IMG/VR virus record: IMGVR_UViG_2531839237_000015
From: a virus
Taxonomy: Duplodnaviria > Heunggongvirae > Uroviricota > Caudoviricetes
Direction: 5' to 3' (one strand)
DNA length: 4,582 nucleotides
Shown: piece after piece, positions 180-4,582 of the stretch
Layout of the letters: every line of letters begins with the position of its first letter
Position numbering within the stretch: the first letter of the stretch is position 1
Position numbers and translations under genes: made by a program
Notes under the pieces: generated by a model
What the model was told of the DNA's origin: nothing
Database searches by the model: none
The model's input: only the letters and a program-made list of their open reading frames with translations

Positions 180-431
180 TCAGGCAGCCTTGTTGTAAAT
201 GTTGCAGGTATCAAGTAAGTAATTAGATGGAGCGCCATAAATTATGAATTCATCGTTTGTCGGGTCCATCTCCATCTCTTGTCCTATTGCCATTCTTGCG
301 TCAGTGTCGTCAGCGGCGAAGCATAAAACAGCCCACGCACCCATTGTTTTAAAAAGAACTGCAATTGGCTGTGGTTTTACTGAATTTGCGTTAGCGCGAA
401 AATCACAAATCGCACTTTCATGAAATTCCAT
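180..431 (-). CDS. Hypothetical protein, 83 aa, downstream of the N-like gene in the leftward early operon
   Basis: ATG-initiated ORF with a strong RBS (minus strand GAGGTGATAT then ATG). Sits 58 bp after the N-like stop on the same strand. No family recognised. Confidence 0.5.
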   Translation of the reverse strand: MEFHESAICDFRANANSVKPQPIAVLFKTMGAWAVLCFAADDTDARMAIGQEMEMDPTNDEFIIYGAPSNYLLDTCNIYNKAA

Positions 432-489: not shown

Positions 490-762
490 TCATCTTGCTG
501 TCAGTTGTTTGGATTTACGGTAGCCTGCCGCGTAAAGAGCTACATTTGGAAGACAAGTTGAGCCTTCATATTTTCTGGTCAACGTTGTCAGTGTTATTAC
601 TTCTGCTCTCATTGCTGGTTTGCGTTTGCATTGTAAGACCACTCGTGATGGGGTTGGCCTGTGTAGTTTGTCGGAGCTAATCGCCTCCTGACTTTGCAGG
701 TTTGCGCGACGAGCTCTACGGCGAGAAGCTGCGGTGCCTTTAAATTCTGTTTTTCTGGACAT
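490..762 (-). CDS. N: N-like transcription antitermination protein (P22 gp24-type), 90 aa
   Basis: Arginine-rich motif near the N-terminus (KGTAASRRRARRANLQ) and C-terminal ...PNVALYAAGYRKSKQLTAR, which closely matches the P22 gene 24 C-terminus (...PGVALYAAGHRKSKQITAR) as recalled. Start chosen at the internal ATG (762..760), which has GGAGG 5 nt upstream, rather than the track's longer ORF start at 834. Confidence 0.75.
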   Translation of the reverse strand: MSRKTEFKGTAASRRRARRANLQSQEAISSDKLHRPTPSRVVLQCKRKPAMRAEVITLTTLTRKYEGSTCLPNVALYAAGYRKSKQLTAR

Positions 763-860
763 AGATTCCTCCCGAATAAACTTTGGCGATGCAATCTCGA
801 AGCTCCTCCTGAGACGGTTGCTTCGGCATTGCATCCCACAGCTTATGTGGTTGGGTGATC

Positions 861-1490: not shown

Positions 1491-2012
1491 TTATTGAGGC
1501 CGAACGTAAACCTTCAGAATTGAAGAGATGCGTTCGGCTTCTTCGTTTGTGATATCGTTAGGAATGCCTTTAATCGTTACTGTAACCCCTGATTCAGGTC
1601 GAAGAACTACTGGAAGATCATAGGTATGAAGTGCATTAGCCTTGCCTTCGACTTTTGTTGGTTCGCCAGTCAAATCTTTTTCCTCACTGGATTCTTTGTC
1701 AATCGGAGTGTATGGGATTTCTTCACCAGACTGGAAAGCTACAAACTTTTTGATTGCACTTTCCATGCGGCTTTTATATGCAGTAATGCTGCTGTCGCTA
1801 GGCTTCGGCTCAGTTGCGTTGATGTATCGCTCGGCAAGCTCATTCACATCAAGCTGAGTAACATCACCCATTTCCTCTTCTTGGACTACCGTTAAGAGGC
1901 GAGCGGATGAGTTTTTTAAATTTCGAGCGGTGGCCTCCTTCATTATGTTCAGCGACATAAGCTCTTCAAGGAAGTCCTTGAATGCCTGCACGCTAACGTT
2001 TGACTTTGCCAT
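1491..2012 (-). CDS. Hypothetical protein, 173 aa, non-lambda cargo gene occupying the rexA/rexB slot downstream of cI
   Basis: Clean ATG-initiated ORF, the only long ORF between cI and the N operon. Predicted helical N-terminal region, acidic Ser/Glu/Lys-rich linker and a compact C-terminal region (LHTYDLPVVLRPESGVTVTIKGIPNDITNEEAERISSILKVYVRPQ). No similarity to RexA, RexB or any family I can name. Flanked by its own promoter-like and terminator elements. Confidence 0.7.
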   Translation of the reverse strand: MAKSNVSVQAFKDFLEELMSLNIMKEATARNLKNSSARLLTVVQEEEMGDVTQLDVNELAERYINATEPKPSDSSITAYKSRMESAIKKFVAFQSGEEIPYTPIDKESSEEKDLTGEPTKVEGKANALHTYDLPVVLRPESGVTVTIKGIPNDITNEEAERISSILKVYVRPQ

Positions 2013-2513: not shown

Positions 2514-3230
<717 letters not shown>

Positions 3231-3237
3231 TTAAATC

Positions 3238-3303
3238 TATCACCGCAAGGGATAAATATCTAACACCGCGCGTGTTGACTGCTTTACCTCTGGCGGTGAT
3301 AAT
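3238..3303. promoter_or_regulatory. Right operator OR3-OR2-OR1 with divergent promoters pRM (leftward, cI) and pR (rightward, cro)
   Basis: OR3 TATCACCGCAAGGGATA (3238-3254), OR2 TAACACCGCGCGTGTTG (3261-3277), OR1 TACCTCTGGCGGTGATA (3285-3301). pR -35 TTGACT (3275-3280) and -10 GATAAT (3298-3303). Near-identical to lambda OR. Confidence 0.92.
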
Positions 3304-3318
3304 GGTTGCATGTACTAA

Positions 3319-3528
<210 letters not shown>

Positions 3529-3535
3529 ATAACCC

Positions 3536-3567
3536 CGCTCTTACACATTCCAGCCCTGAAAAAGGGC
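3536..3567 (+). promoter_or_regulatory. nutR (boxA and boxB); the rho-dependent tR1 region follows, about 3570-3640
   Basis: boxA CGCTCTTA (3536-3543) and boxB GCCCTGAAAAAGGGC (3553-3567), exactly as in lambda nutR. Confidence 0.85.
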
Positions 3568-3624
3568 ATCCAATTAAACCACACCTATGGTGTATGCATT
3601 TATTTGCATACATTCAATCAATTG

Positions 3625-3670
3625 TTATCTAAGGAAATACTTACATATGGTTCGTGCAAACAAACGCAAC
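3625..3670 (-). promoter_or_regulatory. pRE promoter region with CII binding site (TTGC-N6-TTGC), leftward
   Basis: Minus strand TTGCGTTTGTTTGC at plus 3656-3669, overlapping the first cII codons, as in lambda pRE. Confidence 0.6.
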
Positions 3671-3940
3671 GAGGCTCTACGAATCGAGAGTGCGTTGCTT
3701 AACAAAATCGCAATGCTTGGAACTGAGAAGACAGCGGAAGCTGTGGGAGTTGATAAGTCGCAGATCAGCAGGTGGAAGAGAGACTGGATTCCAAAGTTCT
3801 CAATGCTGCTTGCTGTTCTTGAATGGGGGGTCGTTGACGACGACATGGCTCGATTGGCGCGACAAGTTGCTGCGATTCTCACCAATAAAAAACGCCCGGC
3901 GGCAACCGAGCGTTCTGAACAAATCCAGATGGAGTTCTGA
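3647..3940 (+). CDS. cII: CII transcriptional activator, 97 aa
   Basis: Translation MVRANKRNEALRIESALLNKIAMLGTEKTAEAVGVDKSQISRWKRDWIPKFSMLLAVLEWGVVDDDMARLARQVAAILTNKKRPAATERSEQIQMEF matches lambda CII. True start is ATG at 3647; the ORF-track start at 3587 is an upstream in-frame extension. Confidence 0.95.
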   Translation: MVRANKRNEALRIESALLNKIAMLGTEKTAEAVGVDKSQISRWKRDWIPKFSMLLAVLEWGVVDDDMARLARQVAAILTNKKRPAATERSEQIQMEF

Positions 3941-3962
3941 GGTCATTACTGGATCTATCAAC
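3886..3962 (-). ncRNA. oop: oop antisense RNA with its intrinsic terminator overlapping the 3' end of cII
   Basis: Position is colinear with lambda oop. Minus-strand terminator CGCTCGG-ttgccg-CCGGGCG followed by TTTTTTATT ends near 3886. The exact 5' end is inferred from lambda colinearity. Confidence 0.6.
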
Positions 3963-3972
3963 AGGAGTCATT

Positions 3973-4533
3973 ATGACAAATACAGCAAAAATACTCAACT
4001 TCGGCAGAGGTAACTTTGCCGGACAGGAGCGTAATGTGGCAGATCTCGATGATGGTTACGCCAGACTATCAAATATGCTGCTTGAGGCTTATTCGGGCGC
4101 AGATCTGACCAAGCGACAGTTTAAAGTGCTGCTTGCCATTCTGCGTAAAACCTATGGGTGGAATAAACCAATGGACAGAATCACCGATTCTCAACTTAGC
4201 GAGATTACAAAGTTACCTGTCAAACGGTGCAATGAAGCCAAGTTAGAACTCGTCAGAATGAATATTATCAAGCAGCAAGGCGGCATGTTTGGACCAAATA
4301 AAAACATCTCAGAATGGTGTATCCCTCAAAACGAGGGAAAATCCCCTAAAACGAGGGATAAAACATCCCTCAAATTGGGGGATTGCTATCCCTCAAATTG
4401 GGGGATTGCTATCCCTCAAAACAGGGGGACACAAAAGACACTATTACAAAAGAAAAAAGAAAAGATTATTCGTCCGAGAATTCTGGCGAATCCTCTGACC
4501 AGCCAGAAAACGAAACCAGCGCCGCCTGGGTAG
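3973..4533 (+). pseudogene. O: Replication initiator O, disrupted: lambda-like for about the first 141 codons, then frameshifted by a 23-bp iteron duplication and ending at a stop inside gsk-like sequence
   Basis: N-terminal translation MTNTAKILNFGRGNFAGQERNVADLDDGYARLSNMLLEAYSGADLTKRQFKVLLAILRKTYGWNKPMDRITDSQLSEITKLPVKRCNEAKLELVRMNIIKQQGGMFGPNKNISEWCIPQNEGKSPKTRDKTSLKLGDCYPS matches lambda O. After codon 141 (from 4396) the frame departs from lambda (NWGIAIPQNRG... instead of KQGDTKDTITKEKRKDYSSENSG...). The C-terminal P-interaction domain is absent. Confidence 0.85.
4321..4470 (+). repeat. ori-lambda-type replication origin: five 18-19 bp iterons plus the AT-rich region (lambda has four iterons)
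   Basis: Iterons ATCCCTCAAAACGAGGGA (4321-4338), ATCCCCTAAAACGAGGGA (4341-4358), ATCCCTCAAATTGGGGGA (4365-4382), ATCCCTCAAATTGGGGGA (4388-4405), ATCCCTCAAAACAGGGGGA (4411-4429). Copies three and four are a perfect 23-bp tandem duplication (4365-4387 = 4388-4410). A-rich tract at 4430-4470. Confidence 0.85.
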
Positions 4534-4582
4534 TGGGTATCGATCAAACGCTGGTCGATATTGAAGCGAAAGTGGATGATGA
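4500..4582 (+). CDS. gsk: Internal fragment of inosine-guanosine kinase (Gsk-like), lacking its first ~25 codons and its promoter; continues beyond the right window edge
   Basis: Frame with codons starting at 4503 translates PENETSAAWVVGIDQTLVDIEAKVDDE, which I recall as E. coli Gsk residues about 27-53. Sequence to the left of 4500 is lambda O. Confidence 0.55.

Follow-up and report, generated by a model that had tools for sequence, protein, structure and literature searches.

A short gsk segment in the defunct O gene of an O157:H7-type lambdoid prophage, possibly a templated patch

A lambdoid prophage joined to host DNA at a short identical stretch is what is seen in the lambda bio and gal specialised transducing phages, which, in work from the Ikeda laboratory, are said to form by short-homology-dependent illegitimate recombination. 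In those phages the host DNA lies beside the attachment site, within packaging distance, whereas in the case described here the host gene, gsk, is situated 262 kb from the prophage Sp1, and Sp1 is not excised. A second group of related junctions is that described for lac amplification and formalised in the FoSTeS/MMBIR model. Junctions of this kind in E. coli share 2-15 bp of microhomology, and recombination over less than 25 nt does not depend on RecA; template switches can occur in series, connect loci tens to hundreds of kb apart and leave short templated segments between the junctions, and single-stranded DNA at replication origins has been proposed as the substrate (PMC2621351). Our locus is similar to these in the size of its microhomology, in the distance between the parental loci, in the shortness of the putative templated segment and in the proximity of an origin that could supply single-stranded DNA. 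It differs in that the described events were selected as amplifications or deletions, while the window would contain an unselected 58-nt patch in a pseudogene, of which we infer the second junction and the mechanism.

Lambdoid prophages of O157 strains also recombine with each other: homologous exchange between resident prophages yields new mosaics, while Sp1 itself is a degraded remnant that undergoes no circularisation, replication or packaging (PMC2669165). The chimeric Sp5 x Sp15 phages derived from O157 prophages provide a parallel for one of the switch points found here, a crossover of the same kind between Sp5-type and Sp1-type sequence in cI. Recombination of that type operates on hundreds of bases at >90% identity, and it leaves the O/gsk join unexplained.

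Parents of the window and the state of O

The window, by which we mean the entire 4,582-base stretch of DNA analysed, covers the immunity and early-replication region of a lambdoid prophage (Table 1). BLAST against fetched loci identified each of its segments as identical to known E. coli O157:H7 DNA, in the same orientation as on the Sakai chromosome. Positions 18-2612 show zero mismatches to the Stx2 prophage Sp5 of Sakai, while 2613-4513, spanning the cI N-terminus, cro, cII and a frameshifted O, correspond to Sp1 (CP-933H, at thrW) of E. coli O157:H7, with 3281 as the sole differing base in BLAST and mismatch maps. Left of cI, the arm is of the Sp5 type, unlike that of Sp1. The initial annotation had taken the phage part for lambda O; lambda itself can be ruled out, as the identity over 2518-4513 is 97.2% (32 mismatches and a 23-nt gap), versus 100% to the Sp1 of O157. 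Base 3281, which is G in the window and A in Sakai Sp1, is located between OR2 and OR1, beside the -35 hexamer of PR, and the same G is present in the O157:H7 strain TR01.

Table 1. Features of the window, with positions, strand and supporting observations
Feature	Position	Strand	Remarks
83-aa ORF	180-431	-	Sp5-type arm; no Pfam family
N-type antiterminator	493-834	-	
173-aa ORF	1491-2012	-	Sp5-type arm, between N and cI; no Pfam family
cI	2514-3227	-	
Crossover in cI C-terminal domain	2601-2613	-	Sakai Sp5-type to the left (18-2612, 100%), Sp1-type to the right; mismatch maps
cro	3328-3528	+	
cII	3647-3940	+	
Truncated O (O' ORF)	3973-4533	+	186 aa
ori iterons, five	4321-4338, 4341-4358, 4365-4382, 4388-4405, 4411-4428	+	Pattern search, 5 matches vs 0 expected
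23-bp tandem duplication	4365-4387 and 4388-4410	+	TRF period 23, 100% match
Shared 15 bp CCAGCCAGAAAACGA	4499-4513	+	Identical in O interdomain linker and gsk codons 25-30; left switch point
gsk-only 58 nt	4514-4571	+	Codons 30-49, 100% to O157:H7 allele
GTGGATGATGA	4572-4582	+	gsk codons 50-53; resembles Sp1 O stop/P start GTGGATTTATGA-AAAAC; putative second switch point

The O' ORF retains an intact N-terminal Phage_rep_O domain (Pfam PF04492, E=1.5e-36, residues 22-115). The Cro and CII Pfam families are found upstream of it, and the iterons and an A/T-rich stretch lie inside the gene, identifying it as the Sp1/CP-933H allele of a lambdoid O with its origin. Its reading frame is broken: the ORF beginning at the O ATG (3973) is frame-shifted, reads over the junction with gsk and ends at a TAG at 4531-4533, and the part coding for the C-terminal, P-interacting domain is missing from the window. 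Both the frameshift and the fifth iteron (the lambda ori is annotated with four) are due to the 23-bp tandem duplication. In alignments the duplication is missing from lambda and present in Sakai Sp1, where the O pseudogene, ECs_0277, has the same five iterons and the same frameshift as the window; the Sp1 of strain JEONG-1266 is without it and keeps a 299-aa O. Judging from these alignments, the duplication is an inheritance from Sp1 and is separate from the junction event. Downstream of the duplication, the frame of gsk is also the ancestral frame of O, and it is open from 4362 without containing any ATG. That the two frames coincide, and that the upstream duplication prevents an O-Gsk fusion from being read from the O start, had both been proposed beforehand, and a frame check agrees with both, given the premature end of the O' ORF.

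The O/gsk junction and the right end of the window

An abrupt switch from O into gsk-like sequence had been the central point of the initial annotation, and it was indeed recovered at the same place: according to BLAST end points and side-by-side sequences, the exact match to O extends as far as 4513, and that to gsk already starts at 4499. The overlap between the two has to be corrected from 14 bp (4500-4513) to 15 bp. The gsk-like nature of the sequence from 4514 onwards is likewise confirmed by database search, as 84/84 nt over 4499-4582 are identical to the gsk of O157:H7, covering codons 26-52 together with the final base of codon 25 and the first two bases of codon 53, and this stretch is located in gsk in 5,425 of the 5,426 complete E. 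coli genomes. The window does not hold a complete gsk with its own start between its neighbours aes and ybaL, since codons 1-24 and the aes side, where the native 5′ end reads ...CTGCTTCAGCAATTCCAGCCAGAAAACGAAACC, have been replaced by prophage DNA. In Sakai Sp1, on the other hand, the O frame runs on past the shared 15 bp as TCTTTCTGTGG... to the O stop, followed by P', in place of which the window has 69 nt of gsk.

The change between these two unrelated parents takes place inside a short identical stretch and adds no bases, which is how a microhomology junction is recognised. No word longer than the shared 15-mer is common to the gsk locus (8 kb) and the Sp1 sequence compared with it (9.9 kb). 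Its length alone is unremarkable, at least 15 nt being reached in 12 of 100 shuffles; the placement of the junction exactly on the longest shared word, however, indicates that base pairing or homology directed the join. Some 30 nt separate the left switch point from the A/T-rich part of the origin to its left. Scans of the junction region against Rfam and for promoters and terminators yielded nothing relevant.

The TAG that terminates O' overlaps a GTG in the gsk frame at 4533 (codon 37). Gsk proteins starting from this GTG (398 aa) occur on 80 contigs, and those starting from the GTG at 4572 (385 aa) on 26, which means that damaged or mis-started gsk 5′ ends exist in other assemblies. Constructed O-Gsk fusions starting from TTG have no counterpart on record.

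The right end of the window is of special interest in that it resembles the boundary between O and P. The window terminates ...AAAGTGGATGATGA, while in Sp1 O ends ...GGGGTGGATTTATGA, followed by AAAACATC, with the TGA as the O stop and the ATG as the P start in a 4-nt overlap. The two sequences, GTGGAT-G-ATGA(A) in gsk and GTGGAT-TT-ATGA(A) at O/P, are alike at 11/13 nt. The motif GTGGAT.{0,3}ATGA is found once in gsk, exactly at the window's end; the 2.28 Mb of fetched loci contain 49 occurrences, of which 22 are the O/P boundary itself, and the frequency elsewhere is ~1e-5 per base. A looser measure of gapped similarity is reached at 0.4% of chromosomal positions, and the argument from the end of the window accordingly relies on the exact motif and on gene-based edges.

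As for these edges, the left one, TCAT (1-4), reaches 4 nt into the start (ATG) of a neighbouring gene on the minus strand, a homologue of WP_021500848.1 in strain 2013C-3342, and the right one, ATGA (4579-4582), is its mirror image, suggesting that flanking start codons determined where the window was cut. In native gsk, the ATG at 4579-4581 opens only 8 codons and starts no gene, so that a gene starting here would have to continue into DNA other than gsk. The gene that comes next in Sp1, P', begins at just such an ATGA. Taken from the window edges, these observations suggest that P (P' in Sp1) follows base 4582, with the ATG at 4579-4581 as its start. A continuation into P would read AAAACATCGCCGCACAG / AAAACATCGCCGCACAGATGG..., and a continuation into gsk ATTCATTGAGCGTTATGG.

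BLAST searches for the O/gsk junction returned no match in 5,426 complete E. coli genomes, 50,697 phage records and 72,556 plasmid records, and the combination of a Sp5-type left with a Sp1-type right part was likewise found in none of these three collections. An exact 35-mer over the junction was found in none of the viral, genome and metagenome contig collections, and the gsk piece was present in no phage record. Searches for a second copy of the arrangement, by way of the contexts of the cI and 173-aa proteins or with a 38-mer from the left edge, produced none. The protein encoded by the junction ORF likewise has no exact match on record, which is weak evidence, as many annotations give pseudogenes no protein. 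A search of the literature on gsk, prophages and O157 found nothing relevant.

Origin of the gsk segment

The explanation which we tentatively place first is that the gsk DNA represents a short templated patch, introduced in vivo into the already dead O of a Sp1/CP-933H-type defective prophage through two template switches, each guided by microhomology. In the first, a 3′ end in the O linker, either nascent or single-stranded and terminating in ...CCAGCCAGAAAACGA, would have paired with the identical 15 nt of gsk. After approximately 58-69 nt of gsk had been copied, the second switch would have taken synthesis back to the prophage at the O stop/P start; there, GTGGAT-G-ATGAA of gsk resembles GTGGAT-TT-ATGAA of O/P. 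The net outcome would be a replacement of ~370 nt of the 3′ half of O (6215-6584 in the Sakai Sp1 locus L001) by ~58 nt of gsk (4514-4571, plus G4578), bounded by 15 nt of microhomology on the left and by 6+5 nt on the right. Chromosomal gsk would have acted only as a donor and would have stayed intact. A return junction of 5-6 nt fits template switching in vivo, as opposed to PCR jumping or de Bruijn assembly. No functional consequence would be expected, since O had already been frameshifted and Sp1 neither replicates nor excises; moreover, the 100% identity of all segments to O157:H7 argues for a recent event, for which donor and recipient can share one genome. Against the patch speak the looser similarity measure mentioned above, the absence of the allele from every collection searched, and two other gene combinations within the same 4.6 kb that are unseen elsewhere and may signal a chimera.

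Such a chimeric molecule or contig, which would not exist in the strain and could have been generated by template switching during library preparation or PCR, by cloning, or by an assembly or editing error, is in our opinion unlikely. It would account for the location of the junction within 84 nt of the sequence end and for its uniqueness among all collections searched, and would be in line with the two other unseen combinations and with the heteroimmune layout (lambda-type OR and no lambda-type OL). A strand ending in the 15-mer could also prime on gsk in low-stringency PCR. The lengths of the overlaps, however, speak against a mis-join in a de Bruijn graph. Such a mis-join needs at least k-1 shared bases (20 or more), while O/gsk offers only 15 nt, shorter than any k in common use for assembly, and the switch in cI only 11 nt, and it was rejected for this reason; random or blunt co-ligation was rejected as well, as it would miss the longest shared word, on which the junction falls. 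The 27-mer at the cI switch is natural, being present in >80 other contigs. Finally, if P does follow, two chimeric events only 58-69 nt apart would be needed, the second of them on 5-6 nt of homology.

The junction was initially interpreted as a microhomology-mediated deletion in which the remainder of O was lost together with P and all that followed. The first half of this interpretation, a homology-guided join between prophage O and gsk, is upheld, while the removal is not: in Sakai, the Sp1 O breakpoint corresponds to 303,939 and gsk to 565,917, both on the plus strand, and a simple deletion from O to gsk would take 262 kb, including dnaX, adk and hemH, which are located directly upstream of gsk. 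These three genes are essential in E. coli. The end of the window, in turn, points to a short patch. Because a deletion would span essential genes, a one-sided junction formed in vivo by short-homology illegitimate recombination, with the sequence running on through chromosomal gsk, would be viable only as the join of a large tandem duplication, as a Campbell-type insertion of a phage circle via the 15-bp homology, or as a deletion from a prophage immediately upstream of gsk. Any of these would be consistent with the 15 nt of microhomology at the longest shared word, and the order of a Sp5-type left and a Sp1-type right part in cI is that expected at the join of a duplication or insertion. The cost to the cell would be small, as gsk is dispensable and the loss would be limited to its first 25 codons and promoter, and the contigs with Gsk truncated to GTG 4533 or GTG 4572 (80 and 26, respectively) could be viewed in the same light. 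Nevertheless, no prophage was seen beside gsk and no such junction in any complete genome searched, none of the three arrangements was encountered in the genomes covered, and a one-sided join leaves unexplained why the window should end at a look-alike of the O stop/P start, on an ATG that starts no gene; we therefore find it doubtful. Aberrant excision yielding a specialised transducing joint was also rejected, given the 262 kb between gsk and Sp1 and the absence of the gsk piece from phage records.

A very improbable variant is self-recombineering, in which a gsk single strand of ~90 nt, with 15 nt of homology to O at one end and 11/13 nt to the O/P boundary at the other, would have been annealed into the prophage by a Bet- or Erf-type phage single-strand annealing protein. 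The protein would have been supplied by the left arm of this or of a co-resident prophage, and the annealing would have occurred at the single-stranded, O-activated origin during induction. If true, it would mean that resident prophage recombinases can introduce short stretches of host sequence at ectopic sites in genomes, with homology arms well below the length employed in the laboratory. The slight probability that remains belongs to an engineered or otherwise synthetic sequence.

Returning to the templated patch, it would be a fresh example of an already known type of event. If real, it would constitute a clean natural case of a microhomology-bounded patch, with ~58 nt copied from ~262 kb away, beside a phage replication origin. 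Such scars are well known from amplifications selected in the laboratory and from human copy-number variants, and are rarely seen unselected in bacterial genomes. It should also be kept in mind that a signal of fusion between a prophage and a host gene, when it lies at the edge of a window, does not necessarily reflect a large deletion.

The crossover in cI and the left arm

The second switch between parents, in cI, sits in an 11-nt identical run within a 409-bp stretch (2516-2924) that is ~94% identical between Sp5 and Sp1. The 27-mer over this switch is a common natural haplotype, and no locus reproduces the arrangement of the window. Operators of the lambda type, OR3, OR2 and OR1, are confined to the right-hand side of cI (3238-3301), and no lambda-type OL could be found in the Sp5-type left arm (840-1200). 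With a lambda/Sp1-type repressor and no lambda-type OL on the left, the adjacent pL-N operon should escape repression; the hybrid is thus heteroimmune, and a Sp5-type repressor would be needed in trans. The 173-aa protein encoded in the Sp5-type arm is very widespread (10,900 blocks of the collection).

At the extreme left, bases 1-17 diverge from Sp5, while 1-139 match the wrbA lambdoid prophage of the STEC strain 2013C-3342 with 1 mismatch in 139 nt. As the match to Sp5 starts only at base 18, a further mosaic boundary must lie within the shared 18-139, and the left end of the window is an ordinary lambdoid mosaic boundary.

Two PLSDB entries from O157 strains that are filed as plasmids, NZ_CP044147.1 (46.9 kb) and NZ_CP124741.1 (286.8 kb), contain lambdoid prophage segments, and the former carries the Sp1 stretch from cI to O' at 99.5-100% identity. 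Both are probably unplaced or misassembled chromosomal contigs.
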